From positions 2,764 through 66,763 of the forward strand of contig MFUV01000005.1 of the NCBI GenBank assembly GCA_001787005.1: 64,000 bases of DNA. Reading direction: 5' to 3'. This DNA is from Candidatus Nomurabacteria bacterium RIFCSPLOWO2_01_FULL_39_18. Its GTDB lineage: Bacteria > Patescibacteriota > Minisyncoccia > Phycocordibacterales > UBA9973. Under the pieces are notes generated by a model. That model searched no databases and was not told the DNA's origin. It worked only from the letters and a program-made list of their open reading frames with translations. Below, piece after piece: positions 2,824 through 56,360 of the stretch. Both the position numbers and the translations under genes were made by a program. Numbering within the stretch: the first letter of the stretch is position 1; each line of letters starts with the position of its first letter.

Positions 2824-3175
2824 GATATCCTTTTCTAGCCTTTAAAAATAAGGGTAGAATCACAGAACGACCGAAGGCCTGCCCCGTAGTGAGCTCTGCT
2901 CCACTACTGGGGTGTCTGCAAACAAAGGTTCTCACGATGGTTACTATCAGGTCTCTCATTCTGTCATCTTGTGCCGTGCCTCTCTCCAGTACTATGTTTC
3001 CAGGATAACTCAAAAAGGGGTCAAAGTCAATCGGACAAGAAACCCCTGTGGAAAACTTTTTGTAGATAAAAGCCACCAAAAAATTGACAAGAAGGTTAAA
3101 AATATGCAGAATTATAAGAGTTTTTATCAAAAGTTAGGGATTAAAAGCTAAAAGTTTTATAATGGAAATGCAATT

Positions 3176-5329
3176 ATGGAGACACAAAAAGCAAAACCGG
3201 AGTTGAAATTTCACATTCATTACAATGACACGATCTTTTATGAAGGAAAAACTTACAAGGTGGTAGAACTTCCCAGCTGGGAGAATGACAATAGATATAG
3301 GCTGACAAGCCCAGGCTTGCCGGATTTTAAGCTTAAATATACAAAATTACAAGAGGCGTTGGAAAGTGGGAAAGCTGTTTTCGTTCAAACTATTCCACCC
3401 AAAGTACAAGAAGAGGTAGAAAAATACAAAAATCCTGAAACCTTTAGGGTAAAAACCGACAGAAAGAAAACAAAACCTAAAAACGAAGTTGCAAGGTTTG
3501 TTTCGCCTGAAATAAAAAAATTAGAGGAACGTCTTAGGGTAGACAGAGTTAGGCGCATACACCTTCAAGAAGAAGCAAGAGAGGCTTTTGATAGGGGTGA
3601 CTTGTCCAAAGCAAGAAGATTAAACAGCGAAAGCCTTACTCCAATGGAGAAAGATTTGTTTAATTTCTTTGACGATAGAAAACGAGAAATTCCAGCAGAT
3701 ATACTGTCTTTAAATGAAAAATTTAGCCAGATGAGCTATCGTCTTGAATATGATCTGAAACGAAAAGAAGAAGCTTTGGCCCAAGAGCCTACGTTAGTTA
3801 CACTAGAAACAAAAATTCCATGCGCTGTCGTGGAAGATCAGATTAGGCTTGCTCTTTCGTCTCACCTTGAAAACCATGGGAAAATAGAGGAGTTAAAAGT
3901 TAAGGGTGTAGGAGATAAAATAATAATAGGAGCAACAATAATTACACGTAGCTCGATGATGACCTTTAGTCGTGAAGTAAGGGTGACACTTGAGAACAAA
4001 GATACCGGCATTGAAGTGAAAAATGAGATGGAAAAGGAAGATTTTGTTTTTTTAATTAGATCAGCCATTGAAGGTTTGAGGGAAGAGATAGCAGAGAAAG
4101 TAATGTTGGAGGGTTTAGAAATTAAAAAAATAGAGATTAGGAATGGAGAATTAGTGGTAACTTCCGGCGCGCCAGAAACATCTGCTCCTACTCCAGAAAC
4201 AGCACCTGCTCCCGTAGAGTGGACAGAGGCAGATGAAGAAGAATTGCGGAGAATTGAAAAGAAACTTAAGGAGATAGAAGAGCAAGAGATGTTGGAAACC
4301 GGAATTTTTACACCGGAGTTTGTGGGAGAGAGAGTTAAATTTATCCTAGAGTCTTATGTCTTTGGACAGGGGTCAAAAGCAGTTATAAAAGTGGAGAGTC
4401 TAGCTACTGAAGGCAAAGATAATGCAATAAAATTGACTGGAAAGTTAACAATCTCGGATCATCGGGGCAGCCCAAATCAAAATACTGTTGAAAATATTGA
4501 CACAATTCTTGTGAATAATGTTAAAAAAGGTGAAATCCCTATTGTGGCAAGCGGCGATTTGGTATTTATCCTTGGCGACAGAGGTGAAGTCGTTCCCAAT
4601 GGAATAAAAAAATATATAGAGGAAAAAGGAGGGCGAGAAGTTGAGACAATGAAGATTGAAGATGGAAAGCTGGTGGTGGAGTTTAAGGTACCTACTGGAC
4701 CTGATACTGGAGTGCAAGAGGTAGAAATTCTTACGCCACCAACAGAAACAGGAGAAGGGGTGGGGCTTGATGCCTCGATTTCTCCACCCAGCGTTCCGGC
4801 AGAAACCGCCCCATCTTCCTCGCCTGTTCCACCGCCTGTGCCGGAAGTTAAAAGGGGGCCAGAGGTAGAAATTTTTCCAACGAAGTTTATAGAAGATACA
4901 ATTAAAAAACTTCTCGCCTTTAAAAAAGACAGCAAGCTTGAAGGTGGGGGGGAAGAGGAGAAAATAAAGGTTGGAGAAGTTAAGGGTTTAGAAATTAAAG
5001 GAAAAGGTGGTGAAATAATTCTAAATGCAAAAGTTAATGTGGAGATGAAGGTACCAGGGACAGAAAAAACTGTAACCAGTGATGTTGGAATAAAAGTAGT
5101 TCTTGGAAGTAAAAATAACATTATTGTGGTAAAAAATTGCGAGATTAAAGCAAATGTTAATATGATTATTGATCGGATTCTGAACCCACTTCTGGTCCAC
5201 TTCGTCAAACCACACCTTGAAAAAATTTCAGAGACATTAAAGTCTTACATTGAAGACAACGATCCGAAAAGAAGAAAAGTTGAAAAAATGGAAATTGAGA
5301 ATGGTCAATTGAAAGTTACGTTTAAATAA
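3176..5329 (+). CDS. Hypothetical Lys/Glu-rich protein containing two copies of a ~120-aa module shared with the next gene
   Basis: 717-aa ORF starting after a TATAAT at 3158. Internal repeated module ending ...RKVEKMEIENGQLKVTFK. A Pro/Ser/Thr-rich linker. Confidence 0.6.
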   Translation: METQKAKPELKFHIHYNDTIFYEGKTYKVVELPSWENDNRYRLTSPGLPDFKLKYTKLQEALESGKAVFVQTIPPKVQEEVEKYKNPETFRVKTDRKKTKPKNEVARFVSPEIKKLEERLRVDRVRRIHLQEEAREAFDRGDLSKARRLNSESLTPMEKDLFNFFDDRKREIPADILSLNEKFSQMSYRLEYDLKRKEEALAQEPTLVTLETKIPCAVVEDQIRLALSSHLENHGKIEELKVKGVGDKIIIGATIITRSSMMTFSREVRVTLENKDTGIEVKNEMEKEDFVFLIRSAIEGLREEIAEKVMLEGLEIKKIEIRNGELVVTSGAPETSAPTPETAPAPVEWTEADEEELRRIEKKLKEIEEQEMLETGIFTPEFVGERVKFILESYVFGQGSKAVIKVESLATEGKDNAIKLTGKLTISDHRGSPNQNTVENIDTILVNNVKKGEIPIVASGDLVFILGDRGEVVPNGIKKYIEEKGGREVETMKIEDGKLVVEFKVPTGPDTGVQEVEILTPPTETGEGVGLDASISPPSVPAETAPSSSPVPPPVPEVKRGPEVEIFPTKFIEDTIKKLLAFKKDSKLEGGGEEEKIKVGEVKGLEIKGKGGEIILNAKVNVEMKVPGTEKTVTSDVGIKVVLGSKNNIIVVKNCEIKANVNMIIDRILNPLLVHFVKPHLEKISETLKSYIEDNDPKRRKVEKMEIENGQLKVTFK

Positions 5330-8721: not shown

Positions 8722-8734
8722 AAAATTCTGTGCT

Positions 8735-8811
8735 ACCCGGCAGTAGAGCTTGGCAATACTTATAAAGTAAATTTTTATTTTAAAAAAACTTTGCCAAGTC
8801 TCACTACCGGG
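8735..8811. repeat. REP-like hairpin element (ACCCGGtAGTAGAGCTTgG...CAAGTCTCACTACCGGGT), copy 1
   Basis: Imperfect long stem with conserved termini shared with copies at 12815-12854 and 37053-37122. Termini resemble the inverted repeats that flank the IS200/RAYT-like gene at 45576/46294. Confidence 0.5.
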
Positions 8812-10845
8812 TGCTATATTTCAGATGTGACAACAGAAGCTCAACATCTAGGAGGATTAAATAACGAACAAAAAGAAGCGGCGCTTCATATGAAGGGTCC
8901 TATGCTCATTATCGCGGGCGCGGGCGCGGGAAAGACTAAAACAATAACACACCGAATTGTGAATTTGATAAAGGAGGGTATCGTCCCAGATAAAATCCTG
9001 GCTGTAACATTCACCAACAAAGCGGCTAAAGAAATGCGAGAGAGGATTATCGCAGAAATTGAGAAAAATGCGGGAGAACAAGACTCCGTACCGTTTGTCA
9101 GCACTTTCCACTCATTGGGAGTTTTTATTATAAAAGAAAATGCCAGGGTTCTGGGACTAACAAAATATTTCACCATTTTGGACGAGTCAGATTCTACGAT
9201 ATTGATCAAAGAATCATTAAAAGAATTGGGGATAGATCCAAAACAGCATGACCCGAAAAAAATAAAAAACATTATCAGCCGAGAGAAGGGGAAGTTCGTG
9301 CATTTGCCTATGTTTACAGAAGAAAGAACGGATTATGTGGGCAAAATTGTGGCGCAAGTTTGGAATTTGTATGAAAAGAAAAAGGAAAAAGAAAATTCGC
9401 TGGACTTTGATGATCTGCTTTTGAAAGCAACGAAATTATTGCAAGAACGGGAAGAAATTAGGCAAATTTATCAAGAAAAATGGGAATATATTCACATCGA
9501 TGAGTATCAGGACACAAATGAAGTGCAATATTTAATGTCAAAATTGCTTTCTGAAAAGCATAAAAACATAGCTGTGGTAGGGGATGCCGATCAGAATATA
9601 TATTCTTGGCGCGGAGCAAATTTAAAAAATATTTTGAGTTTTGAAAAAGATTACCCTGACGCAAAGATAGTCTTGCTGGAGCAGAATTATAGATCAACAA
9701 AAAACATCTTGGAAGCCGCGAACGTAATAATTAAAAAAAATAAATACCGCCCAGATAAAAATTTATTTACGAAAAACGCCATGGGTGAAAAAATTGGTTT
9801 TTATGAAGCGCTTGATGAGACCGATGAAGCGGACTTTGTGGCAACAAAGATTTTGGAAATTTTGGACAGGGCTGGTGTTGCTTTTGAGAATGGTCTGGCT
9901 GGGGGAGGGACCCAGGAATCCGAGGACCTGAGCAAAAGCAACACCAGCCCTGTCCTCTCCAACATAGCAATTCTCTATCGCGCAAATTTTCAATCTAGGG
10001 CGCTGGAAGAAGCAATGCTAAGATACAACATTCCATATCAAGTTTTAGGTGTTAAATTTTTCGAAAGAAAAGAAATCAAAGATACTTTGGCATATCTGCG
10101 CGCGGCATTAAACAGAGACAGTCTTTCGGATATAAAAAGAATTATCAATTTCCCTGCGCGAGGCATAGGGAAAGTAACTTTGGTGAAAATTTTCGCGGAT
10201 GATATAGAGAACCTGCCAGTAAAAATGAAAATAAAAATTATTAATTTTTATGAAATATTGGAGGAGATAAAAGAAAAAATAAAAAGTGAAAAGGCAAGCC
10301 AGGTGATAAAATTCGTAGTGAAAAAGTCTGGCATTGAAAACGAATTATCGAGTGGCACCGAGGAAGACATGGAAAGACTTGAAAACATAAAAGAGCTTGT
10401 AACATTGGCCCTCAAATATGACAATCTGGCGCCAGGGCTAGGCATAGAAAAGCTTTTAGAAGATGCGTCGCTTGCTTCTGATCAGGATTCTTTGATTGAA
10501 AGAGGAGAGAAGAAAGAAGTAAAAAATTCAGTAAAATTAATGACAGTTCATGCATCAAAGGGGCTTGAATTCAAATATGTTTTCATCACTGGGCTAGAAG
10601 ATGGACTCTTCCCACACGAGAAACAAAATGAAGAAACTAGTATTGATAGCGAAGAGGAGCGCAGACTTTTCTATGTAGCGGTTACCCGGGCTCGGAATAA
10701 ATTGTTTTTGTCATTTGCAAATTTTCGCACTATCTTTGGTTCACGCTCCATTAATACTCCATCAGAATTTATTTCCGATATCCCAGCTGATTTATTAGAA
10801 AAAGAAGAAGAGAAAAATTTATTGAAAACAATTTATTTAGACTAG
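8791..10845 (+). CDS. pcrA: ATP-dependent DNA helicase PcrA/UvrD (SF1)
   Basis: Walker A IIAGAGAGKTKTITHRI, DEYQDTN, QNYRST, VKLMTVHASKGLEFKYVF, LFYVAVTRAR. The true start is probably the GTG at 8827 (MTTEAQHLGGLNNEQKEA..), just after the REP-like hairpin. The gene carries an 88-nt palindromic insert at 9866-9953. Confidence 0.9.
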   Translation: MPSLTTGCYISDVTTEAQHLGGLNNEQKEAALHMKGPMLIIAGAGAGKTKTITHRIVNLIKEGIVPDKILAVTFTNKAAKEMRERIIAEIEKNAGEQDSVPFVSTFHSLGVFIIKENARVLGLTKYFTILDESDSTILIKESLKELGIDPKQHDPKKIKNIISREKGKFVHLPMFTEERTDYVGKIVAQVWNLYEKKKEKENSLDFDDLLLKATKLLQEREEIRQIYQEKWEYIHIDEYQDTNEVQYLMSKLLSEKHKNIAVVGDADQNIYSWRGANLKNILSFEKDYPDAKIVLLEQNYRSTKNILEAANVIIKKNKYRPDKNLFTKNAMGEKIGFYEALDETDEADFVATKILEILDRAGVAFENGLAGGGTQESEDLSKSNTSPVLSNIAILYRANFQSRALEEAMLRYNIPYQVLGVKFFERKEIKDTLAYLRAALNRDSLSDIKRIINFPARGIGKVTLVKIFADDIENLPVKMKIKIINFYEILEEIKEKIKSEKASQVIKFVVKKSGIENELSSGTEEDMERLENIKELVTLALKYDNLAPGLGIEKLLEDASLASDQDSLIERGEKKEVKNSVKLMTVHASKGLEFKYVFITGLEDGLFPHEKQNEETSIDSEEERRLFYVAVTRARNKLFLSFANFRTIFGSRSINTPSEFISDIPADLLEKEEEKNLLKTIYLD
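9866..9953. repeat. Intragenic palindromic element inside pcrA, with 23-bp perfect terminal inverted repeats around a 37-nt GC-rich core
   Basis: ggacagggctggtgttgcttttg ... caaaagcaacaccagccctgtcc flank the core ggtctggctgggggagggacccaggaatccgaggacc. That core is the exact reverse complement of 11225-11261 in rsmA. It is translated in frame as ..AGVAFENGLAGGGTQESEDLSKSNTSPVLS.. Confidence 0.65.
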
Positions 10846-10882: not shown

Positions 10883-11851
10883 ATGCAAAAAGAAAGAAAA
10901 TACAAAGCAAAAAAGTCGTTAGGGCAAAATTTTTTAAAATCAGAACTGGCTTTAAAAAAAATTATTGAAGCAGGGGAGATAAAAAGGGGTGACATAATTT
11001 TAGAAATAGGACCAGGCAGAGGAGCATTGACCGAAAAACTTCTAGAAAAAGTTTACCTTGCTGGGGCGGGGCAGGGGTTGGTCATCGCAGTTGAAAAAGA
11101 CCGCGAGCTTTTTGAATTTTTAAAAACAAAATTTAAAAAAGAAATAGAGCAACGCTCTCTTGTACTAGTATATGGAGACATATTAAAATTTGATGCAAAA
11201 AAAACTGTTTTGAAGTTTTTTTCAGGTCCTCGGATTCCTGGGTCCCTCCCCCAGCCAGACCATTCAAAAAACTCAAAATCGTCTGATTTTAAAATAATTG
11301 CCAACATCCCCTACAACATCACTGGAGCGATTTTGAAAAAATTTTTAGGAGGGTTAAACCAACCGACAGACATGGTATTGATGGTTCAGCAAGAAGTCGC
11401 GAGGAGGATAATGGCCCGAGATAGTAAAGAAAGTATTCTTTCGATTTCTGTGAAGGCTTATGGTGAACCAAAAATTGTTATGAAGGTGCCAGCGCGATAT
11501 TTCAGGCCTGTGCCGAAAGTAGATTCAGCGATAATCATTATAAAAAATATTTCTCGCAAAATTTTTTCAGTATTACCCCCTCCGCCCAGAAAGTCTAATT
11601 GGGCACCTCCCCCTTATCAAGGGGGAGGTAGTAAAGAAGTTCAAGGTAAAACCTTGAACAGCCATGAATTTGAAGAGAAATTCTGGGAAATAGTGAAAGC
11701 GGGCTTTGCCCATAAGAGAAAAAAGCTCTCCAGTAATTTAAAAAATCTAAAAGACGGAAGCAAGGCTTCCGTCTCGAGCCTGGGAGATAGGAGAGCGGAA
11801 GATTTAACACTAGAAGACTGGATTGCGTTGTGTAAAAAGTGTTATAATTAA
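10883..11851 (+). CDS. rsmA: 16S rRNA (adenine1518/1519-N6)-dimethyltransferase RsmA/KsgA
   Basis: SLGQNFL, ILEIGPGRGALTEKLL, ANIPYNITGAIL. At 322 aa it is longer than typical RsmA because of two GC-rich in-frame inserts (11221-11268 and 11598-11634). Confidence 0.9.
   Translation: MQKERKYKAKKSLGQNFLKSELALKKIIEAGEIKRGDIILEIGPGRGALTEKLLEKVYLAGAGQGLVIAVEKDRELFEFLKTKFKKEIEQRSLVLVYGDILKFDAKKTVLKFFSGPRIPGSLPQPDHSKNSKSSDFKIIANIPYNITGAILKKFLGGLNQPTDMVLMVQQEVARRIMARDSKESILSISVKAYGEPKIVMKVPARYFRPVPKVDSAIIIIKNISRKIFSVLPPPPRKSNWAPPPYQGGGSKEVQGKTLNSHEFEEKFWEIVKAGFAHKRKKLSSNLKNLKDGSKASVSSLGDRRAEDLTLEDWIALCKKCYN
11221..11268. repeat. Intragenic GC-rich element in rsmA (tcaggtcctcggattcctgggtccctcccccagccagaccattc), inverted copy of the pcrA element core
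   Basis: 37 nt identical, and about 48 nt near-identical, to the reverse complement of 9891-9927. Flanked by an A/T-rich imperfect inverted repeat. Encodes FFSGPRIPGSLPQPDHSK in RsmA. Confidence 0.65.
11598..11634. repeat. GC-rich hairpin element cctccccc-ttatcaa-gggggagg inside rsmA
   Basis: 8-bp G/C stem with loop TTATCAA. The same loop and a near-identical stem (ccccctcc-ttatcaa-ggaggggg) occur at 19463-19485 inside another gene. Translated as PPPYQGGGS. Confidence 0.55.
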
Positions 11852-12799: not shown

Positions 12800-12814
12800 A
12801 TAAAAAACGATATA

Positions 12815-12854
12815 ACCCGGTAGTAGATCTTTGGTAAAAGTCTCACTACCGGGT
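12815..12854. repeat. REP-like hairpin element, copy 2 (acccggtagtagatctttggtaaaagtctcactaccgggt)
   Basis: Same termini as copies 1 and 3. It directly abuts a TATAAT and the start of the 12869 gene. Confidence 0.5.
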
Positions 12855-12868
12855 ATAATATAAGGAAA

Positions 12869-36768: not shown

Positions 36769-37052
36769 AGGTGTATCTACTTTCTGGATCATCATCTTCT
36801 GGTTCAAAGCCGGGCATTTCTTCGAGTGGGATATTTGGGTCGAATGACTCTTCATCACCGTCCACCTTAAACCCACTACTTATTTCTTCATCTTCATCGT
36901 AACTCATATAAAATTATTTTTTTCCGCCAGGGGCGGATCCGCCTTGGGCGGAAAATTTTTTAAACGACCAAATTATATTTATTTCCCAATTTCATACTTT
37001 GTAACAAAATATAAATCGCTTGGCAATAGCAAAAAGACCAAAAGTGTGGATA

Positions 37053-37122
37053 ACCCGGTAGTAGAGCTTTGCGATATGCGAAGCATGCATCGAAGATGCG
37101 TCGCAAAGTCTCACTACCGGGT
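37053..37122. repeat. REP-like hairpin element, copy 3
   Basis: acccggtagtagagctttgcga ... tcgcaaagtctcactaccgggt with an inner GCATGC-centred hairpin. Same termini as copies 1 and 2. Confidence 0.5.
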
Positions 37123-37128
37123 AACTCC

Positions 37129-37608
37129 CTATCCTCTCATATGTGCAAAGGCAGTCAAAGCGATCGCGATCGCGTCTAGCTCATCATCTGATGTTTTAAA
37201 TTTATCTACATCAACCAAAATTTTAACCATTTTCATCATTTGTATTTTGTCTGCTCGCCCAAAGCCGGTGGTGGCTATTTTTATTTGCAAAGGAGTTGCT
37301 TCAAAAATGCGAAGTCCTGCCTGGATGGCTTCGTAGATTACCACTCCCCGCGCTTCAGCCACGCGCATCACTGTTTTTTGATTGGTGTTTAAAAATAAAG
37401 TCTCGATTGAAAGAACTTCCGGCTTGTATTTTTTTATTATTTTTCTGACTTCTCGGCCGATTAGATGCAATCTCTCCGCAAAGTCTAGCGAACTCGAAGT
37501 CTTAAAACATTCGGAAAAAATCATACATTCTTTCGCTCCATTTTCTTTCTTTTCTAATACCGAGATTCCCAATCGTTCGAACCCCGGGTCTATTCCTAAA
37601 ATTCGCAT
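37129..37608 (-). CDS. ruvC: Holliday junction resolvase RuvC
   Basis: MRILGIDPGFERLGISVLE... and DDELDAIAIALTAFAHM. Confidence 0.9.
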   Translation of the reverse strand: MRILGIDPGFERLGISVLEKKENGAKECMIFSECFKTSSSLDFAERLHLIGREVRKIIKKYKPEVLSIETLFLNTNQKTVMRVAEARGVVIYEAIQAGLRIFEATPLQIKIATTGFGRADKIQMMKMVKILVDVDKFKTSDDELDAIAIALTAFAHMRG

Positions 37609-39507: not shown

Positions 39508-40581
39508 CTACAAAAGCTTACTTTGTTTTTCTTTCACCTTAACCCCCAGATGTTCGTACGCCTTCTTGGTAGCCACCCGGCCGCGAGCAGTGCGCTCGAG
39601 GAGTCCAAGCTGGATTAAATATGGCTCTATTACTTCTTCCACTGTCGCTTCTTCCTCAGACATCGCTGCTCCGATAGTTTTCAATCCCACCGGTCCGCCA
39701 CCGAATTTCTTAATTAATATTTCCAGAAATTTTCTATCAGAAGGATCTAAGCCGAGTTCATCAATCGCCAGCATGGCAAGGGCACTTTTCGTTGTTTCTT
39801 TACTTATGGTTTTTTTGCCTGCCCCGTAGGAAGCAAGATTCCCTTCGGGGTGAACTTGAGCAAAGTCTCGGACTCGTTTTAAGAAATAGTTAGCCGTGCG
39901 GGGAGTGAACCTGCTTCGTTTAGCTATCTCTTCCAGAGCGCCACTGTCTAATTTTGCCTTAAGTAATTTACTAGATCTTTCTATTATTTTTTCAATCTCT
40001 TTATTTGAGTAAAATTCCAGCCTGAAAACTCCACCAGAGAATCTTGATCGTAGCGGTGAAGAAATCAAAGCTACTCGGGTGGTAGCCGCTATCAAGGTGA
40101 AAGGGGGGAGATCTAATTGAATTGTTCTGGCAGATGGTCCCTTGCCGAGGATGATATCTAGAACTCCAGACTCCATGGCAGGGTAGAGTATTTCTTCAAC
40201 CATTTTATTGAGTCGATGGATTTCATCAATGAAAAGGATATCGCCCGGGGATAAATTTGTAAGAATGGAAGCCAAGTCACCCACTTTCACGATTGCTGGT
40301 CCGGAAGTGATTTTTATTTGTCGGTTGGTTTCCTTGGCAATCAGATGAGCCAAGGTGGTTTTACCTAGACCTGGGGGACCATAGAAAAGAATGTGTTCTG
40401 GTATATGTCCGCGCTCTTTGGCAGCTTGTAAAAGAATTTTGACGTTATCCTTTATGTGTTTTTGGCCTATATACTCATCAAAACGCGTAGGACGCAAGGT
40501 CTGGTCCAAAAAAGAATCTTCAGATTTACTTGCCCCGCCCTGGCTTCTGGCGCTTGTTTCTTTGGTTATTTTGCTTGACAT
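39508..40581 (-). CDS. ruvB: Holliday junction branch-migration helicase RuvB
   Basis: ILFYGPPGLGKTTLAHLIA and DILFIDEIHRL. Carries a 30-nt GC-rich palindromic insert at 39821-39850, translated as PEGNLASYGAGKK. Confidence 0.95.
   Translation of the reverse strand: MSSKITKETSARSQGGASKSEDSFLDQTLRPTRFDEYIGQKHIKDNVKILLQAAKERGHIPEHILFYGPPGLGKTTLAHLIAKETNRQIKITSGPAIVKVGDLASILTNLSPGDILFIDEIHRLNKMVEEILYPAMESGVLDIILGKGPSARTIQLDLPPFTLIAATTRVALISSPLRSRFSGGVFRLEFYSNKEIEKIIERSSKLLKAKLDSGALEEIAKRSRFTPRTANYFLKRVRDFAQVHPEGNLASYGAGKKTISKETTKSALAMLAIDELGLDPSDRKFLEILIKKFGGGPVGLKTIGAAMSEEEATVEEVIEPYLIQLGLLERTARGRVATKKAYEHLGVKVKEKQSKLL
39821..39850. repeat. CCCCGTAGGAAGC...TTCCcTTCGGGG palindromic element inside ruvB
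   Basis: Imperfect palindrome. Same family as 53858-53889 (uvrA), 56331-56360 (intergenic), and the degenerate copies at 2877-2908 and 35497-35527. Confidence 0.6.
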
Positions 40582-42744: not shown

Positions 42745-45135
42745 ATGAATAAAGACAAGAAAACACTGGTCCTGCTCGATGCTCACGCTATCATACATCG
42801 TGCTTATCATGCCTTGCCAGAGTTCTTGTCGTCGAAGGGCGAGCCCACTGGGGCGCTCTATGGACTCTCTACCATGCTGATGAAGATAATTGCTGATCTA
42901 AAACCCGATTACATCGTGGCTTGCTATGATTTACCGGACAAAACTTTTAGGCATGAAGCATATGATGGCTATAAAGCAGGCAGGGCGAAAACAGATGATG
43001 CGCTCATTTTGCAATTAAAAAACTCTCATCAGATTTTCGAAGCATTTAATATACCCCTCTATAATGCGCCAGGATTTGAAGCGGATGATGTGCTGGGGAC
43101 GATAGTAGAGAGATTCAAGGGGGACAAAGATCTGAACATCATCATTGCTTCTGGCGATATGGACACGATGCAGTTAGTCGATGATAAAAAAGTGCAGGTT
43201 TATACTTTGAAGAAAGGCATCAATGATACAATTTTATATGATGAAGAAAAGGTGGTGGAGAGATTTGGTTTTAAGCCCAAATTTTTGCCGGACTACAAGG
43301 GGCTACGTGGCGACCCATCGGATAACATCAAAGGCATTAAGGGAATCGGAGAAAAAACAGCGCAGACCCTGATAGTAAACTTCGGCACGATTGAAGAGAT
43401 TTATAAAAAAATAAAAAAAGATGAAAAATCTTTCACCATAGCCGGGGTTAGTCCTCGAATGATCGAGTTGGTAAAAAATAACGAAGAAGAAGCTTTATTT
43501 TCGAAAACTCTGGCGACAATCCGGACTAATGTGCCGATAGATTTTAAAATACCGGGAAAAACTTTTTGGGACAACGCTGATCTAAAAAAGATTGAACAAG
43601 TTTTCATATTATTTGAATTTCGTTCTTTATTTGCGCGTTTGAAAAGCTTTTTTAGAAAAAGTGGGAACGAAAACAGCTCTAACCAGCTTCTTTTTGTCGA
43701 AGAAAATAAGACGAACGAGAAAGATGTAGATCCGATTAAACTTCAAGAAGCTTCTATCGCGCTTTGGCTTATCAACTCGGATATCTCAAATCCAAGCTTA
43801 GAAGATATTTTACAATTTGCCAATACGGATGATTTTATTGTGGCATATGAGTATATTTTAAAAGAGCTAAAGGAGAAAAAACTAGATTTAGTATTCTCCG
43901 AAATAGAGAAACCCATTATGCACACAGTAAAAGAGATGGAAGACTACGGGATTCTGATAGATAAAAAATATTTTAAAAAATTATCTGATGAATATCATAG
44001 AGAATTAGATATATTGACGAAAAAAATTTACAAAATGGCTGGCATGGAATTTAATATAAATTCACCGAAACAATTAGGCGAAATTCTTTTCGATAAATTG
44101 GGCATGAAGTCAAGCAAAAAGAAAAACGCAAGTGGATCTTTCTCCACTAAGGTTTCTATTTTGGAAGAATTAGAAGATGAAAATGAGATCATAAAAGAGA
44201 TACTAGCCTATCGCGAACTCCAGAAATTGCTTTCTACTTACATTGATGTAATACCCAAGATGGTGGGGGAGGATGGCCGTCTACATGCGAAATTTCTGCA
44301 AAATGGGGCGACGACGGGTAGATTCTCTTCACAAGATCCAAATTTACAGAATCTGCCGATAAAAACTGAACTAGGCAGAAGGATCAGAAGCGGATTTGTA
44401 GCGACGCCTGGGCACAAACTTTGCGCTTTCGATTACAGTCAGATAGAGCTGCGGGTGGTGGCAATGCTCTCGGGAGATAAAAAGATGACGCAAATATTCC
44501 GTGAGGGGAAGGATATTCACGCGGGCGTAGCGTCTTTTGTATTCGGAGTACCTATTGAGAAGGTTGATAGTGAAATGCGCCGCAAAGCAAAAATAATAAA
44601 TTTTGGCATTATTTATGGCATGGGGATTTCTGCCCTGAAGAAGAACCTCAAAGGCACGCGCGAAGAAGCGCAAAAATTTCATAATAATTATTTTAATCAA
44701 TTCTCCGGCGTACGAGATTATTTAGAAGAGGTGAAAGCTTTCGCCCTTAAAAATCTCCACACTGAAACCCTATTCGGTCGGCGTCGATATTTCCCTAATA
44801 TAAATTCCAGAATCCCATTTTTGAAAAATATAGCAGAACGTACAGCTACCAATGCTCCGATTCAGGGCACAGCCACGGCTGACATCATTAAGCTTGCCAT
44901 TCGATATGCCGATGAAGATTTAGAGGCGGCAGGAATAAAAGATCGAGTTCATCTCATTCTCCAGATACACGATGAACTGGTATATGAAATACATGAAAGC
45001 GCGACAGAAAAAGCTTCCAAGATAATAAAAAAAGCGATGGAAGGGGTGCTGGAACGTTCATATCTTCATTTTAAAACAGACATCCCGCTAGTTGTTCATT
45101 CTAGTTCAGGGAATAATTTCGGAGAGGTGAAATAA
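42745..45135 (+). CDS. polA: DNA polymerase I (5'-3' exonuclease + polymerase domains)
   Basis: 5'-nuclease motifs in the N-terminal 250 aa. Polymerase motifs DYSQIELR, RRKAKIINFGIIYGM and QIHDELVYE. The start is taken as the MNKDKK Met; the track ORF begins upstream inside the palindrome. Confidence 0.9.
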   Translation: MNKDKKTLVLLDAHAIIHRAYHALPEFLSSKGEPTGALYGLSTMLMKIIADLKPDYIVACYDLPDKTFRHEAYDGYKAGRAKTDDALILQLKNSHQIFEAFNIPLYNAPGFEADDVLGTIVERFKGDKDLNIIIASGDMDTMQLVDDKKVQVYTLKKGINDTILYDEEKVVERFGFKPKFLPDYKGLRGDPSDNIKGIKGIGEKTAQTLIVNFGTIEEIYKKIKKDEKSFTIAGVSPRMIELVKNNEEEALFSKTLATIRTNVPIDFKIPGKTFWDNADLKKIEQVFILFEFRSLFARLKSFFRKSGNENSSNQLLFVEENKTNEKDVDPIKLQEASIALWLINSDISNPSLEDILQFANTDDFIVAYEYILKELKEKKLDLVFSEIEKPIMHTVKEMEDYGILIDKKYFKKLSDEYHRELDILTKKIYKMAGMEFNINSPKQLGEILFDKLGMKSSKKKNASGSFSTKVSILEELEDENEIIKEILAYRELQKLLSTYIDVIPKMVGEDGRLHAKFLQNGATTGRFSSQDPNLQNLPIKTELGRRIRSGFVATPGHKLCAFDYSQIELRVVAMLSGDKKMTQIFREGKDIHAGVASFVFGVPIEKVDSEMRRKAKIINFGIIYGMGISALKKNLKGTREEAQKFHNNYFNQFSGVRDYLEEVKAFALKNLHTETLFGRRRYFPNINSRIPFLKNIAERTATNAPIQGTATADIIKLAIRYADEDLEAAGIKDRVHLILQIHDELVYEIHESATEKASKIIKKAMEGVLERSYLHFKTDIPLVVHSSSGNNFGEVK

Positions 45136-45159: not shown

Positions 45160-45549
45160 ATGGAAAAAGAAAATAAAAAACATGGCGTGTTATTAACAGT
45201 GTGGGTAGTTCTGATAATAATCATTAATGTTATTATCAGCGCAGGTTGGTTGTGGGAATCAATACATCCATATACGCCAGAGTCTACATCACTTTGGCTA
45301 ATATATGTTTATGTAATATCAGGATTCGTCAATGTTGTGTTTATAGTATTTTTATTCAGGTGGAAAAAATGGGCATTTTTTGCTTATTTTGGGAGTGTGG
45401 TTGTTGTTTTTATCTTGAATGTGATTAGTGGAAGGATAGAACTCATTAGTCTTCCATTTAGTCTTCCGTACGCGCTAGTTGGACCAGCCGTTCTTTATTG
45501 GATACTTCATTCCAAGACATTTTATTCTAAGTGGGACTTACTTGAATAA
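45160..45549 (+). CDS. Small integral membrane protein, hypothetical
   Basis: 129 aa with four predicted TM helices. Confidence 0.45.
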   Translation: MEKENKKHGVLLTVWVVLIIIINVIISAGWLWESIHPYTPESTSLWLIYVYVISGFVNVVFIVFLFRWKKWAFFAYFGSVVVVFILNVISGRIELISLPFSLPYALVGPAVLYWILHSKTFYSKWDLLE

Positions 45550-45575
45550 TTTTGGATAGGTAAAGTAACCAATAA

Positions 45576-46318
45576 GAGCTTTAGACTCTCACTGCGAGTT
45601 ATGATATAGTAAGATACATGCGGAAGGAACCACTAATAACGGGAGAGTATTACCATATTTATAATAGAGGCGTAGATAAGCGAGATATTTTTAATAATCT
45701 GAAAGATCTCGAGCGTTTTAAAGAAAGCATAAAACAATTTAATCAAATTGAAGGCATTGGTAGTTTAGAAATGTACAATAAATCAATAAGAGCTTTAGGC
45801 TCTCACCCCGACAGTTATCTGAAATTAAAATCAGAACCACTTGTGGCTATCATTGCTTTTTGTATCAACCCCAATCATTTTCATTTTCTTATTAAACAAC
45901 TTGTCGACGGCGGGATAGCTAAATTTTTTCAAAAACTTCAGGGTGGGTATACTTATTATTTTAATCAAAAAAACCAGAGATCGGGGGCACTACTTCAGGG
46001 GACTTTTAAATCTAAATTAATTAAAAATGATGATTATTTCAGAAAAACATTTGCATATGTAAATCAAAATTATTCTGTTCACAATATTCCTAAAAGCAAA
46101 CTTCCTTTTATTTTTGCAAGTGACACGGAATATGAAAGCGAGCTTTTTAATTTAGTGTCAAAGTCTGAAGGACAAAAGATGCTAGACATTTTTGAAGGTA
46201 AGAATAATCTTAAAAAACATTGTAAAGAAATTATATCAATTATTCGAGAAGAACGGGGGAAAACTTCCCTAGAAGAACCGGATGAATTATTTCAGTGAGA
46301 GTCTAAAGCTCTCACTGG
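45576..46318. mobile_element. IS200/IS605-type (RAYT-like) unit: Y1 HUH transposase gene flanked by 20-bp perfect inverted repeats
   Basis: Left AGAGCTTTAGACTCTCACTG (45576-45595) and right CAGTGAGAGTCTAAAGCTCT (46294-46313) are exact reverse complements. The right flank itself forms a 9-bp-stem hairpin. Confidence 0.6.
45618..46298 (+). CDS. IS200-like / REP-associated tyrosine transposase (HUH Y1 family)
   Basis: YHIYNRGVDKRDIF..ERF, HuH motif NPNHFHFLIK, and YFNQKNQRSGALLQGTFKSKLIKNDDYFRKTFAYVNQN (catalytic Tyr region). These align closely with IS200 TnpA blocks. Confidence 0.8.
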   Translation: MRKEPLITGEYYHIYNRGVDKRDIFNNLKDLERFKESIKQFNQIEGIGSLEMYNKSIRALGSHPDSYLKLKSEPLVAIIAFCINPNHFHFLIKQLVDGGIAKFFQKLQGGYTYYFNQKNQRSGALLQGTFKSKLIKNDDYFRKTFAYVNQNYSVHNIPKSKLPFIFASDTEYESELFNLVSKSEGQKMLDIFEGKNNLKKHCKEIISIIREERGKTSLEEPDELFQ

Positions 46319-48239: not shown

Positions 48240-48248
48240 TCAGAACTG

Positions 48249-48321
48249 TGCGCCCGGTTGGGATCGAACCAACGACCTTATCCTTAAAAGGGATCTGCTC
48301 TACCGACTGAGCTACGGGCGC
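48249..48321 (-). tRNA. tRNA-Lys (anticodon UUU)
   Basis: Cloverleaf: acceptor GCGCCCG/CGGGCGC; D-arm GCTC-AGTCGGTA-GAGC; anticodon loop CTTTTAA; T-arm GTTGG-TTCGATC-CCAAC. No encoded CCA. Confidence 0.9.
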
Positions 48322-48578
48322 ATGTGTTTTATTAAATTTTTAACAAATTCTCTACCCCTAAAACTTTTTAATTGTCGCTCCCTTTTTATGGCTTCAGTTC
48401 TCGTGGGGAATGCTTCTTTATGGATCAATGCCCACGGACCCCTATTTTGCAAAGTGAACTTACCTAAATGATCACCCCCGTTACTATTATGCTGTTTTAG
48501 TCTGCTATCTATATCGATAGTTTGACCTATATATATCTTATCAGAGGTCTGACTATAAATTGCATAAACTGTGAACAT
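48312..48578 (-). CDS. Small GIY-YIG nuclease-domain protein (UPF0213/YhbQ-like)
   Basis: VYAIYSQTSDKIYIGQTIDIDSRLKQHNS matches the GIY-YIG motif. 88 aa. Its last 10 nt, including the TAG stop, are nt 1-10 of tRNA-Lys. Confidence 0.75.
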   Translation of the reverse strand: MFTVYAIYSQTSDKIYIGQTIDIDSRLKQHNSNGGDHLGKFTLQNRGPWALIHKEAFPTRTEAIKRERQLKSFRGREFVKNLIKHMRP

Positions 48579-48585
48579 AAATTTT

Positions 48586-48628
48586 TCTGCTCTACCTCTG
48601 CCAGCTGGCGGATGAGCTACGGGCGCAT
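48586..48628 (-). repeat. Partial duplicate of the tRNA-Lys 5' end (nt 1-14 and 18-28), with a 17-nt palindromic insert in the D-loop position
   Basis: gatgagctacgggcgcat and tctgctctacc match the tRNA. They are interrupted by tctgccagctggcggat, which is related to the 18-bp palindrome at 1623-1640. The copy lies 7 nt upstream of the GIY-YIG ATG. Confidence 0.5.
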
Positions 48629-48829
48629 CTTGTGATAGTATAAGAAATAAGGCTAAAAATCAAGAAAAATGGTAATATATTAGTATGTTTAAGATCAGCA
48701 AAACGTTGTTGTGCTTTCTAATTTTAACGATAGTAAGTTCTTTGTTTGCTTACACTATTATAGTAAAAGCATACGAAAATGCATATCCCGACTATTTAAT
48801 CCAATAAATTTTCGTGTTAAGGTGTAACT

Positions 48830-52406: not shown

Positions 52407-54977
52407 ATGGCAAAACAAGAAAAAGAATCAAATAAAATAATAATAAAAGGGGCGCGAACACACAACCTTAAGAATATTACGGTTGAAATACCACGAGATA
52501 AGATGACAGTCATTACCGGAGTTTCTGGAAGTGGCAAATCTTCTCTCGCCTTCGATACAATTTTTGCCGAAGGGCAGAGGCGATACGTAGAGTCGTTGTC
52601 TTCTTATGCCCGGCAATTTCTGAATCAAATGCCCAAGCCGGACGTGGATGAAATCACGGGGCTTTCACCCGCTATTTCCATTGACCAAAAATCCCGATCG
52701 AACAATCCTCGCTCCACCGTAGCGACCATTACAGAAATTTATGATTATCTCCGGGTAATGTACGCGCGTATTGGGCACCCGCACTGCCCGGAATGCGGAG
52801 AAGAGATAAAGAAACTTTCTAATGAAGAAATTTTGAATTTTATTCAAAATAAAATCAAAACTCATTCTTCTGTTTCTATTTTTTCTCCAGTCGTTAGAGG
52901 GAGAAAAGGAGAATATTACCAGTTATTGTACGACTTGCTGGGCAAAGGTTTTTCCGAGATTCGGCTGGATGGAACGATGAAAAAGCTTCGGGAGCAAATC
53001 ACCCTCTCAAAATACAAAGCTCACAACATCGAGGTCTTGGTGGATGGTTTTTCGATTGATGGATTAAAAAAAGAAGAATTGCGCATGCGCTTGTCTGAAG
53101 CGATCGAGCGAGCTCTGATTGAATCTGACGGACTAGTCACAACTAAAATTAATGATGAAGAATTTATTATGTCTGCAAAATTTGCCTGCAAAAATGACGG
53201 CTTTTCTTTTCCAGAGATTGAGCCTCGTTTATTTTCTTTTAATTCTCCCTATGGCGCATGCCCAGCTTGTAATGGCCTTGGTTCGAAGTATTTTATGGGA
53301 GACGAACCCTGTGATGTTTGTCATGGTGCGCGCCTTCGCACCGAAGCCCTAAATGTTTTTTTGGAAACTAAAAATAAAAAAGTTAATATTTTAGATCTCG
53401 CTTCTCTCTCCATTGCCGATGCGCATGATTTTTTCAAGAACCTTAAGCTCTCAAGCCAAGAGAAAGAAATATCCATGCCAGTAGTGAGGGAGATAGAAGC
53501 GCGGCTACAATTCATGCTCGACGTTGGGCTCAACTACCTTCAGCTTTCTCGTAAAGCCAATACTCTCTCCGGCGGAGAGGCTCAGCGCATTCGCCTGGCT
53601 TCACAGCTCGGCTCCAGGCTTGTGGGAGCTCTCTATGTGCTCGATGAGCCGACGATAGGGCTTCATCAACGAGACAATGACCGTTTAATCAGAACATTGC
53701 AGAATCTGCGCGATCTAGGCAATACGATTTTAATTGTTGAACACGATGAAGACACTATTTATGCATCAGATTATATCGTAGATATTGGACCGAAGGCTGG
53801 GGTGCATGGCGGGGAAATTATTGTTTCTGGTTTTCTCGAGGATTTATTGACTGCTAACCCCGAACGAAAGCCTACGGCTTCATACGGGGCAGGGAAAAAC
53901 ACGAAGTCCAGAACACTTGGCTATTTAAGAGGTGAGTTAAAAATAGAAATTCCCAAGAAGCGTCGCGGCGGTAAAGGCGCGCTTCGCATCAGCGGGGGAA
54001 AAATTTTTAATATAAATAATTTGAATGTAGAAATTCCGCTTGGCGTCATGACCTCTATCACCGGTGTGTCCGGGAGCGGTAAAAGTTCCTTAATGTATGA
54101 AATTCTTTACAAGAATTTACAGGCGAGGTATGAACGCAAATATCGTACTGCTAAAGTTTACAATTGCTCTTCTTTTTCTGGTACTGAATACCTATCTCGA
54201 GCGATTTTAATTGACCAATCACCCATTGGTCGAACTCCGCGTTCTAATTTGGCAACTTATACGGGCGCTTTTACTCATATTCGAGACCTTTTTGCCACCA
54301 CCGAAGAGGCTCGTCTGCGTGGCTGGAAGGCAAACCGCTTTTCTTTCAACGTCAAAGGCGGCCGCTGTGAAGCTTGTGAAGGCAACGGCGAGATCGCTGT
54401 GGAAATGCACTTTTTGCCGACAGTTTACGTGACTTGCGATGTATGCAACGGCAAAAGATTTGATAAAGAAACACTTACTGTAAAATATAAGAAAAAAAAT
54501 ATTTATGAAGTGCTCCACATGACGGTCGAAGTTGGACTCTCATTCTTCAAGGACATTCCTGCGATTTCTGATCGACTGGAAACTCTGATGGATGTGGGAC
54601 TAGGGTATCTAGAGCTTGGTCAGTCGGCCACCACACTCTCTGGCGGGGAAGCGCAACGGGTAAAAATATCGAGTGAGCTATATCGTCCGCATGCAGATAT
54701 GACCATCTATCTTCTTGATGAACCTACTGTGGGGTTGCACTATGATGATGTGCATAAACTATTGGAAGTGTTAAATAAACTTGTAAGTAAAGGCAACACC
54801 GTCATTCTAATAGAGCACAATCTGGACATTATAAAGAGTTCAGACTACATAATAGATATTGGGCCAGAAGGGGGAATGAATGGGGGTAATTTAGTGGCGA
54901 AGGGCACACCAGAAGAAGTGGCGAATAATACAAAAAGCTACACTGGGAAATATTTAAAGAGGGCTTTACGCAAATGA
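52407..54977 (+). CDS. uvrA: Excinuclease ABC subunit A
   Basis: Two ABC modules ([15 protein letters not shown] and [15 protein letters not shown]), LSGGEAQR x2, and zinc-finger Cys clusters. Carries a 32-nt palindromic insert at 53858-53889 translated as [13 protein letters not shown]. Confidence 0.95.
53858..53889. repeat. CCCCGAACGAAAGC..GCTTCATACGGGG palindromic element inside uvrA, same family as the ruvB insert
   Basis: Its reverse complement, ccccgtatgaagc...ttcgttcgggg, matches the CCCCGTAGGAAGC/TTCCTTCGGGG termini. Both intragenic copies read ASYGAGK in the host frame. Confidence 0.6.
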
Positions 54978-56260: not shown

Positions 56261-56330
56261 TTTAAACTGCAAAAGGCATACTATATAAAAATGAAGTTCG
56301 AAACAAGAATCTGCCAGAACCCCGAAGGAA

Positions 56331-56360
56331 AGTAAAGCTTCCTACGGGGCAGGTTGCAAA
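56331..56360. repeat. Intergenic copy of the CCCCGTAGGAAGC...TTCCTTCGGGG palindromic element (reverse orientation)
   Basis: ccccgaaggaaagtaaagcttcctacgggg. Sits 7 nt upstream of the ATG of the Cys-rich paralog B. Confidence 0.55.

Follow-up and report, generated by a model that had tools for sequence, protein, structure and literature searches.

A palindrome-bounded Y1 HUH nuclease gene and a separate family of ACCCGG hairpin elements in a Patescibacteria genome

A Y1 HUH gene and its three palindromes

The DNA analyzed here (hereafter, the window) is a 64-kb stretch from the genome of Candidatus Nomurabacteria bacterium RIFCSPLOWO2_01_FULL_39_18 (Patescibacteria; contig MFUV01000005.1). At positions 45618–46298 of its forward strand lies an open reading frame (ORF) of 226 aa which, on the evidence of Pfam, alignment and fold, encodes a Y1 HuH nuclease resembling both the tyrosine transposases associated with repetitive extragenic palindromes (RAYTs and REPs, respectively) and the TIRYTs of subclass 2.1, whose genes are flanked by terminal inverted repeats (TIRs) and are known as TIRtrons (Di Nocera et al. 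2013, PMC3733652). An earlier note on this DNA had recognized Y1 HUH blocks in the ORF and had regarded three intergenic hairpins elsewhere in the window as candidate REPs that its product mobilizes in trans; the first proposal was borne out, whereas the second, as described below, was not.

The product, whose gene is present in one copy within the window, matched the Pfam family Y1_Tnp over residues 76–150 (E = 3.4e-7; 30.8 bits against a cut-off of 23). Its HuH motif is N86-H87-F88-H89 (NHFH) and its Tyr motif is Y147-VNQNY, and the residues H87, H89 and Y147 were invariant across an alignment of 34 homologs. The Tyr motif, with the family consensus YVN[KQ]NY, retains the N of the RAYT signature Y---NP and has Y in place of its P. 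An AlphaFold2 model (predicted local distance difference test score, pLDDT, of 76.8) displayed the beta-alpha core typical of Y1 transposases and, in agreement with the alignment of 34 members, a C-terminal helical extension of about 70 aa that is conserved family-wide. When the model was compared with solved structures by Foldseek, the best PDB matches were IS608 TnpA (2a6m, E = 1.4e-4), TnpA_REP with a REP hairpin (4er8, E = 2.3e-4) and IS200 (2f4f), and the top 12 were all IS608, TnpA_REP or IS200 transposases, with a probability of 1.00 and a target-normalized TM of 0.5–0.6. No transposase was retrieved when PDB sequences were searched with a profile of the family alignment, such that solved structures were reached by fold comparison alone. 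At the level of fold, the ORF product is a Y1 HUH protein of the IS200/RAYT type; by motif, it is nearest to class 2 as defined for TnpA_Y1 proteins by Quentin et al. (PMC6006769), with NHFH, (L/F)Q instead of WQ, and Y---N as its class-2 features. No helix-turn-helix (HTH) was detected by Pfam in the C-terminal domain of the 34 members, and a C-terminus like DnaA domain IV (Bac_DnaA_C), as found in subclass 2.1, was rejected after an hhalign comparison with the DnaA of the window (probability 0.3%).

The gene is flanked by an exact inverted 20-mer, AGAGCTTTAGACTCTCACTG, at 45575–45594 (+) and 46293–46312 (−), for which zero chance matches were expected. This arrangement had already been described in the earlier note, from which the start of the 5′ 20-mer differs here by one base, and the inverted repeat formed by both ends extends to 26 nt with 92% complementarity. 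The 5′ palindrome, CCAATAAGAG-CTTTAGA-CTCTCACTG (45569–45594), overlaps the −35 region of a putative promoter (45582–45610, + strand; a consensus match), which comprises a −35-like TAGACT within the palindrome, a 17-nt spacer and an extended −10 (TG-A-TATAGT). Since the ATG is located 8 nt past the −10, the mRNA would be nearly leaderless. The 3′ palindrome, CAGTGAGAG-TCTAAAG-CTCTCACTG (46293–46318), has a perfect 9-bp stem, contains the stop codon TGA (46296–46298) within its left arm, and is the sole strong hairpin of the three when folded as DNA (−9.0 kcal/mol, z = −5.0); no T-run follows it. The copy that had been reported within the gene was confirmed at 45789–45808 (+), with 3 mismatches to the 20-mer and in the same orientation as the 5′ copy. 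Together with the left flank common to the copies, this internal palindrome, TCAATAAGAG-CTTTAGG-CTCTCACCC, spans 45783–45808, lies in frame and encodes S56–P64 (SIRALGSHP), in a loop, modeled with low confidence, that joins a helix to the strand ahead of the HuH strand (pLDDT < 50 at residues 58–70). Further copies of the palindrome were not found in the 64-kb window.

The genomic surroundings revealed how the gene is placed with respect to its neighbors. In L151–L154 (labels of the form L### denote fetched homolog or element loci), the gene order was T2SSE, polA, a PEMT-like gene and holA, with polA running directly into the PEMT promoter and no HUH gene, whereas at the same spot the window harbors orf129 and the palindrome-bounded HUH unit. 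Relative to these empty polA|PEMT sites, the HUH unit is an insertion. A degenerate duplicate of the polA 3′ end, AATAATTTTGGATAGGTAAAGTAA (45545–45568, + strand; original at 45112–45135), immediately precedes the 5′ palindrome, which suggests that the unit landed right after polA first and that orf129 came later. This orf129 (45160–45549) is a membrane-like ORF of 129 aa without a Pfam match and, given that relatives lack it, seems to be a small insertion in its own right, placed between polA and the RAYT unit. The same insertion site was kept in L072–L074 (76–78% identity), and another context was found in L005 and L007. Taken together, the empty sites, the synteny of L072–L074 and the contexts of L005 and L007 point to a discrete insertion that moves rarely and was then vertically inherited. 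A decayed member of the family was also encountered (L114, 1517–2260). It retains both outer palindromes and the two thirds of the gene that encode the C-terminal part, while a foreign fragment of an endonuclease/exonuclease/phosphatase-like ORF occupies the place of the stretch that would run from the 5′ to the internal palindrome.

Palindromes in related genes and a proposed explanation

The homolog family comprised 2278 clusters at E ≤ 1e-3, of which the best 120 were 61–88% identical, with named members among the Nomurabacteria, Yonathbacteria, Paceibacterota and Minisyncoccia. About 60 related loci (40–88% identity) were compared, which had been obtained by exact protein look-up (L005–L007) and by a metagenome scan (L071–L150, 40–78% identity). 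Nearly every related gene possessed a locus-specific palindrome in triplicate, whose stem measured 7–20 bp and whose centre measured 3–7 nt. All three copies were recovered automatically in 36 loci and two in most of the others, with none being recovered only in the divergent loci L111, L115 and L125. Their positions were approximately −60 to −17 from the ATG, +166 to +210 in frame, and −15 to +25 around the stop codon. More specifically, the 5′ palindrome ended 17–30 nt before the ATG and directly upstream of an extended −10 (TGnTAtaaT), with the ATG about 8–12 nt further on; this −10 was conserved right after the palindrome in L005, L007, L080–L087 and others. The internal copy, located at about codons 56–70 in a disordered loop, was single and at a fixed position in virtually all members, down to about 45% identity.

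Between clades, at least 12 unrelated stems were distinguished (for example GTGAGAGC, CAGATAGCGCC, CAGATAGAGG, AGATAGGGG, CAGAAAGGGCC, AAACTCAGACG, TTCGGACG, GTCGGGTG, TGTAGACG, ACTTGGAAACC, CCAGAGGC and CACTTGGCGG), whereas within a locus all copies had one and the same stem, and therefore the palindromes co-evolve with the gene, a behavior that cognate REP-like sites would be predicted to show. The internal peptide tracked the palindrome and its orientation (RALGSH, ESKAL/APKAL, EVKPL, SGVGHP, SDVGRP or VDVRRL), which indicates that the constraint acts on the DNA and not on the protein. The orientation of the centre was free, with all four combinations of the three copies being represented, in 13, 9, 7 and 6 loci, respectively. 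A role of loop orientation in marking the functional strand was rejected on these grounds, and also because the strand bearing the G·T-compatible mismatches in the window is not the one that bears them in L007. Double-foot GTAG was confined to the TGTAGACG..CGTCTACA clade among the related loci, and extra cognate palindromes near the gene were present in about 6 of 58 loci, with small clusters in L117 (four more), L116, L121 and L123.

Two further observations concern the neighborhood and the more distant relatives of these genes. In some clades, DnaA-box-like motifs (TTWTNCACA, often GAGTTTTCCACA) were situated 8–12 nt from cognate palindromes, namely in L117 (4939 and 5686), L121 (3027), L113, L118, L119 and L084/L120, which amounts to an approximately 4-fold enrichment within 30 nt of palindromes (9 observed versus about 2 expected). 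In addition, a distant RAYT-like subfamily from the candidate phyla radiation (CPR), of the YIHLNP type and with 33–38% identity (L025, 4082–4777; L058, 3856–4515; L047, about 3080–3800), was also bounded by its own palindromes, such as TGCGTTAGG..CCTAACGCA; in L047, a third palindrome was internal at +287, a different position.

On the basis of family membership at the fold level, the three-palindrome architecture and the co-evolution of palindromes and gene, we interpret the segment 45569–46318 as a compact palindrome–gene–palindrome unit, that is, a REPtron/TIRtron-like element of Patescibacteria that encodes a class-2 Y1 HuH nuclease related to RAYT/TnpA_REP and TIRYT proteins, and we assign this interpretation a probability of about 0.68. 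By analogy with structurally related enzymes, the three palindrome copies are most likely the protein's own recognition sites: the HUH enzyme would bind them folded as hairpins on single-stranded DNA, like IS608 TnpA and the E. coli TnpA_REP, and would cut and rejoin strands beside them. The outer two palindromes would have delimited the unit once inserted between polA and the PEMT-like gene, and the 5′ copy, lying on the −35 region, might also permit autoregulation. The internal palindrome may be an in-frame cognate REP whose presence is tolerated since the encoded residues form a surface loop. The copies could be homogenized by recurrent strand exchange or by gene conversion, which would keep them identical while their sequence drifts between lineages. 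In the source genome, two of the copies (5′ and internal) have been weakened, and the unit appears to be fixed and to be passed on vertically.

Several results are at odds with this interpretation. With regard to the protein, its score against the NCBIfam model REP_Tyr_transpos (NF047646) was 29.5 bits, below the curated cut-off of 80, and its Tyr motif is Y---NY and not the RAYT-type Y---NP. As for the palindromes, the hairpins of the 5′ copy and of the internal copy are weak on both strands (−1.2 to −4 kcal/mol), owing to two common G>A changes in the left arm (CAATAAGAG versus CAGTGAGAG), and no GT[AG]G guide is evident in the window's clade, the stem of the window beginning with CAGTGAGAG, without GTAG or GTGG. 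No dispersed copies were found in the 64-kb window or in most 10-kb flanks, and hence the REP-spreading activity that defines RAYTs is not seen here. Near-perfect palindromes whose centres of 3–7 nt flip freely would fit a symmetric double-stranded operator equally well, and the universality and fixed position of the internal copy are not explained by the proposed mechanism.

One alternative is that the unit is an ordinary, still autonomous IS200-like insertion sequence (IS), with the outer hairpins as its left and right ends, that transposes as a single-stranded circle; we consider this rather unlikely. Although its size of about 750 bp and the presence of a hairpin at each end resemble IS200, both ends correspond to one near-perfect palindrome in variable orientation and not to the distinct, imperfect, one-strand subterminal hairpins of IS200, and the 5′ hairpin is degraded in the window. 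Likewise, a discrete insertion relative to the empty polA|PEMT sites and homologs in differing genomic contexts (L005 and L007) would be in line with a mobile IS, but there is one copy in 64 kb with no duplicate in the 10-kb flanks, and one site has been vertically kept in relatives of 76–78% identity. The breakpoints of the L114 rearrangement, at the 5′ and internal palindromes, also favor an IS, whereas the protein itself does not, given its Y---N (class 2) versus the Y---Q of TnpA_IS200, its 226 aa with an extension versus about 150 aa, and the lack of a tnpB gene.

It is also conceivable, albeit quite improbable in our judgment, that the palindromes are signals in double-stranded DNA or in RNA and not HUH substrates, acting as operators to which a dimeric regulator binds (this could be the C-terminal domain of the protein itself), as insulating terminators, or as elements of mRNA stability or translation. 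Perfect palindromes with short centres in free orientation would suit such signals, as would a 5′ copy exactly on the −35 region, which is nevertheless compatible with the proposed palindrome–gene–palindrome unit as well. The 3′ copy sits on the stop codon, where a terminator or stabilizer is expected, but it has no T-run, and terminators need neither match each other nor have an internal in-frame counterpart. A regulatory role could be envisaged for the conserved C-terminal helical domain (about 70 aa); however, it lacks detectable HTH or Bac_DnaA_C similarity. Finally, while the 4-fold enrichment of DnaA-box-like motifs beside the palindromes of some clades is favorable to this idea, the structurally related proteins recognize hairpins in single-stranded DNA.

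The intergenic ACCCGG hairpins as a separate MITE-like family

The three intergenic hairpins of the window (8735–8812, 12815–12854 and 37053–37122) proved to be real and to have common arms, ACCCGGYAGTAGAKCTT and AAGTCTCACTACCGGGT, of which the left one occurs 3 times in the window against 0.03 expected, while the 14-mer of the right arm is exact in all three. The first, a long form (8731–8816, + strand), consists of an element at 8736–8811 between TGCTA repeats (8731–8735 and 8812–8816) and has a folding energy of −20.7 kcal/mol (z = −6.4). The second, a short form (12811–12858, + strand; element at 12816–12853, direct repeat TATAA, z = −7.4), is inserted into, and splits, the TATAAT −10 box of the gene that starts at 12869. 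The third, a long Y-shaped form (37051–37124, + strand; element at 37054–37121, direct repeat TAA, −27 kcal/mol, z = −9.6), lies in the tyrS–ruvC spacer, where it abuts a perfect DnaA box, TGTGGATAA (37045–37053), that is present in the empty site too. This empty orthologous site was found in L032 (about 1195–1225), which reads TGTGGATAAC|TATCC versus TGTGGATAA[element]TAAC..TATCC in the window, and the element was present at the orthologous tyrS–ruvC site in L017 and L023. L064 was considered as an empty site for the first copy, but it has another palindrome and other neighbors, and it was set aside as uninformative.

When 185,579 species-representative genomes were scanned for the right-arm 17-mer AAGTCTCACTACCGGGT, 63 loci were obtained, about 50 of them in Patescibacteria metagenome-assembled genomes (MAGs) labeled Nomurabacteria, Paceibacterota or Saccharibacteria, several of which contained 3–5 exact element copies. 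About 10 of the 63 matches were in non-CPR genomes, had no left arm and were taken as chance. The elements occurred in a short form of about 40 nt, a long form of 70–84 nt, and a form of about 315 nt in which the arms enclose a gene for a GIY-YIG protein of about 85–88 aa. Twenty-two of the 27 distinct long forms fold into a Y-shaped three-way junction, whose two small hairpins vary in sequence between copies and whose inner outer-stem pairs covary; the ACCCGG stem, for its part, carries two conserved single-base bulges. The element proper is CCCGG...CCGGG, and direct repeats of 3–5 bp flank at least 53 of the 56 copies that have both arms, with identical flanking 4-mers in 29 of the 56 (versus 4.9 in shuffles), identical 5-mers in 15, and inverted matches in only 1. 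No Rfam family matched any of the hairpins, neither in the whole window at gathering thresholds nor in 36950–37250 at E ≤ 10, and no larger IS carrying ACCCGG arms was found in all the fetched loci. The three intergenic hairpins are members of a transposon family similar to miniature inverted-repeat transposable elements (MITEs) that is separate from the HUH gene.

With regard to the proposal that these hairpins are REPs mobilized in trans by the RAYT, both hairpin types do contain the blocks AGAGCTTT and TCTCACT to the letter, as the earlier note had pointed out, but their relatedness is at chance level, the ends of the HUH gene are unrelated to the intergenic hairpins, and no guide tetranucleotide of the GTAG type was identified. 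HUH proteins such as IS608 TnpA and the Rep protein of adeno-associated virus do recognize bulged or Y- or T-shaped structures, and single-strand HUH transposition (IS200/IS605) makes no target-site duplications. A REP/RAYT system in which the HUH protein copies or moves the ACCCGG hairpins in trans is very improbable, despite the two blocks in common, the single-base bulges and Y/T-shaped long forms of a kind that HUH proteins recognize, and the location of four RAYT-like genes 1–3 kb from ACCCGG elements within some 450 kb of loci selected for the elements, given that equally high scores against the intergenic hairpins were obtained for 12% of random palindromes of matched composition, that target-site duplications and an empty site exist, that the ACCCGG arms are constant across many Patescibacteria MAGs whereas RAYT palindromes change wholly between clades, that only about 2 related hairpins were found in 481 kb of RAYT flanks, that the RAYT-like genes near the elements have their own, different palindromes, and that the arms enclose a GIY-YIG nuclease gene of their own.

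This GIY-YIG ORF was found between the arms in 10 loci (L026, L035, L040, L052, L027, L055, L060, L155, L158 and L160), for example at 3820–4137 in L040 and at about 1470–1800 in L155, with direct repeats of 3–4 bp. Arms and duplications were again observed in GIY-YIG homolog loci that had not been chosen by the 17-mer, namely L155 and L158 (both at the rny 3′ end) and L160 (after glyA); in another such homolog locus, L163, there was a left arm only. In all these loci, the ATG of the GIY-YIG gene was 4–5 nt past the stem, and the arm asymmetry (AGAG/GAGA) was found either way relative to the gene. We tentatively raise the possibility, which we hold to be doubtful, that the ACCCGG elements, both short hairpins and Y-shaped ones, are non-autonomous forms of a previously undescribed transposon, whose sole gene would be that of a minimal GIY-YIG nuclease of about 88 aa (a relative of the structure-specific enzymes of the SLX1/YhbQ type) within bulged inverted arms of about 20 bp. 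Such a nuclease would recognize the extruded hairpin or three-way junction and mobilize the element with duplications of 3–5 bp, without a DDE, serine, tyrosine or HUH transposase. Alternatively, the GIY-YIG gene could be a homing gene living in the loop of the element. Literature searches for GIY-YIG elements with TIRs and target-site duplications, and for ACCCGG elements, returned nothing relevant.

Six of the GIY-YIG elements were located at the 3′ end of rny (encoding RNase Y), where the final codons of the gene, with its stop (GCC CGG TAG), come from the arm, and where the flanking repeat agrees with the codon at that place (TACG, TTCG or TTTG). The window has a GIY-YIG gene of its own (48312–48578, − strand), which is not in ACCCGG arms and lies between tRNA-Lys (48248–48321) and a duplicated tRNA 5′ half (48588–48629; GCGCCCGTAGCTCA..GGTAGAGCAG). 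The left arm of the MITE (GCCCGGTAGTAGAGC) resembles this tRNA 5′ part minus the D-loop.

Two other groups of repeats were noticed in the window. Hairpins of the type CCTGCCCCGTAG..AGC..CTACGGGGCAGG are present at 2878–2911, 39809–39834, 53877–53902 and 56320–56353, and one with CCCCGATAGTAGAGC..GCTCACTACGGGG was found at 5778 in L120; they could constitute a family of their own or be divergent relatives of the ACCCGG arms. A GC-rich palindromic element with 56-nt arms lies at 9860–9960 within a UvrD-like helicase ORF and has an inverted copy at 11216–11271 within a ksgA/RrnaAD methyltransferase ORF; with 93% complementarity between its two sites, it appears to be another intragenic repeat family.

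Significance and comparison with known systems

Patescibacteria genomes are tiny and are thought to be poor in mobile DNA. Against this background, the HUH unit as interpreted here would extend systems of the REPtron/TIRtron type to Patescibacteria, a phylum outside the surveys of such systems cited here. It also offers an unusually clean natural experiment, in which three palindromes (one of which is translated) have changed in step with a conserved enzyme in dozens of lineages, and through which it becomes directly testable what determines the specificity of Y1 HuH nucleases and why an in-frame cognate site is kept. Splitting the hairpins from the HUH gene prevents a wrong annotation and brings to light a pan-Patescibacteria miniature element whose structure is maintained by compensatory change and which has a relative that encodes a GIY-YIG protein; if it were true that the GIY-YIG nuclease mobilizes these elements, this would represent a new transposition chemistry in bacteria. 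Since ACCCGG elements are found in −10 boxes and at gene ends, and give rny its stop codon in several genomes, they affect the annotation and expression of CPR genes.

The ACCCGG elements resemble known bacterial MITEs (Correia/NEMIS, RUP and ERIC) in their size (40–80 bp), TIRs, short target duplications and several copies per genome, as well as in their insertion in promoters and gene ends and in the existence of empty sites. Unlike them, however, they have arms that are identical across many Patescibacteria MAGs with different lineage labels, compensatory changes preserve a Y-shaped three-way junction in their long forms, and their sole coding relative contains a GIY-YIG gene of about 88 aa and no DDE transposase.

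A literature search on RAYT or HUH systems in Patescibacteria returned nothing relevant. With IS200/IS605 elements (IS608 TnpA, PDB 2A6M), which gave the best structural match, the HUH unit has in common its small size, hairpins at both ends and a discrete insertion, whereas the Y---Q motif of IS200, its protein of a 150-aa core only, its imperfect one-strand subterminal hairpins with guide tetranucleotides and its high copy number are absent here. The REPtron (E. coli yafM, PDB 4ER8) is similar in its Y1 HuH fold, in one gene-specific, co-evolving palindrome that flanks the gene, usually inverted, and apparently in low copy number with vertical inheritance within a clade. The window's family differs from it in having no evident GT[AG]G guide, in its near-perfect palindromes and in the absence of a dispersed population of REPs or REPINs in 64 kb; its protein has Y---NY, 226 aa with a C-terminal domain and an NCBIfam RAYT score below the cut-off, and its host belongs to the Patescibacteria.

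The TIRtron/TIRYT systems, in turn, are alike in protein length (about 230 aa; about 238 aa for the subclass) with a C-terminal extension, in NH[YF]H and FQ instead of WQ, and in a gene bounded by inverted repeats, some of them self-complementary, with few or no dispersed copies. In contrast, the repeats of the window lack the TIR motif GGGGWSAS, YVN[QK]NY replaces Y[IV]HLNP, the family has no detectable HTH or Bac_DnaA_C similarity, and an internal palindrome is present. In-frame REPs inside tnpA_REP have been described for subclass 2.4 (RAYT group 4), where they lie between the HuH motif and the Tyr motif, in varying number and with varying length (Quentin et al. 2018, PMC6006769). As in that subclass, a cognate palindrome lies in the transposase gene of the window, in a peripheral variable region and with the frame unbroken, and further copies flank the gene; the palindromes of the subclass are of the "double-foot" type and its HuH motif is NH[IFV]H, which are further points of likeness. 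On the other hand, the window's family has a single internal copy at a fixed site upstream of HuH (residues 56–64 versus 86–89), and the Tyr motif, the C-terminal extension and the taxa also differ, those of subclass 2.4 being Cyanobacteria and Bacteroidetes. In-frame REPs in RAYT genes were already known (PMC6006769), and the window's family is a distinct variant of the REPtron/TIRtron kind.

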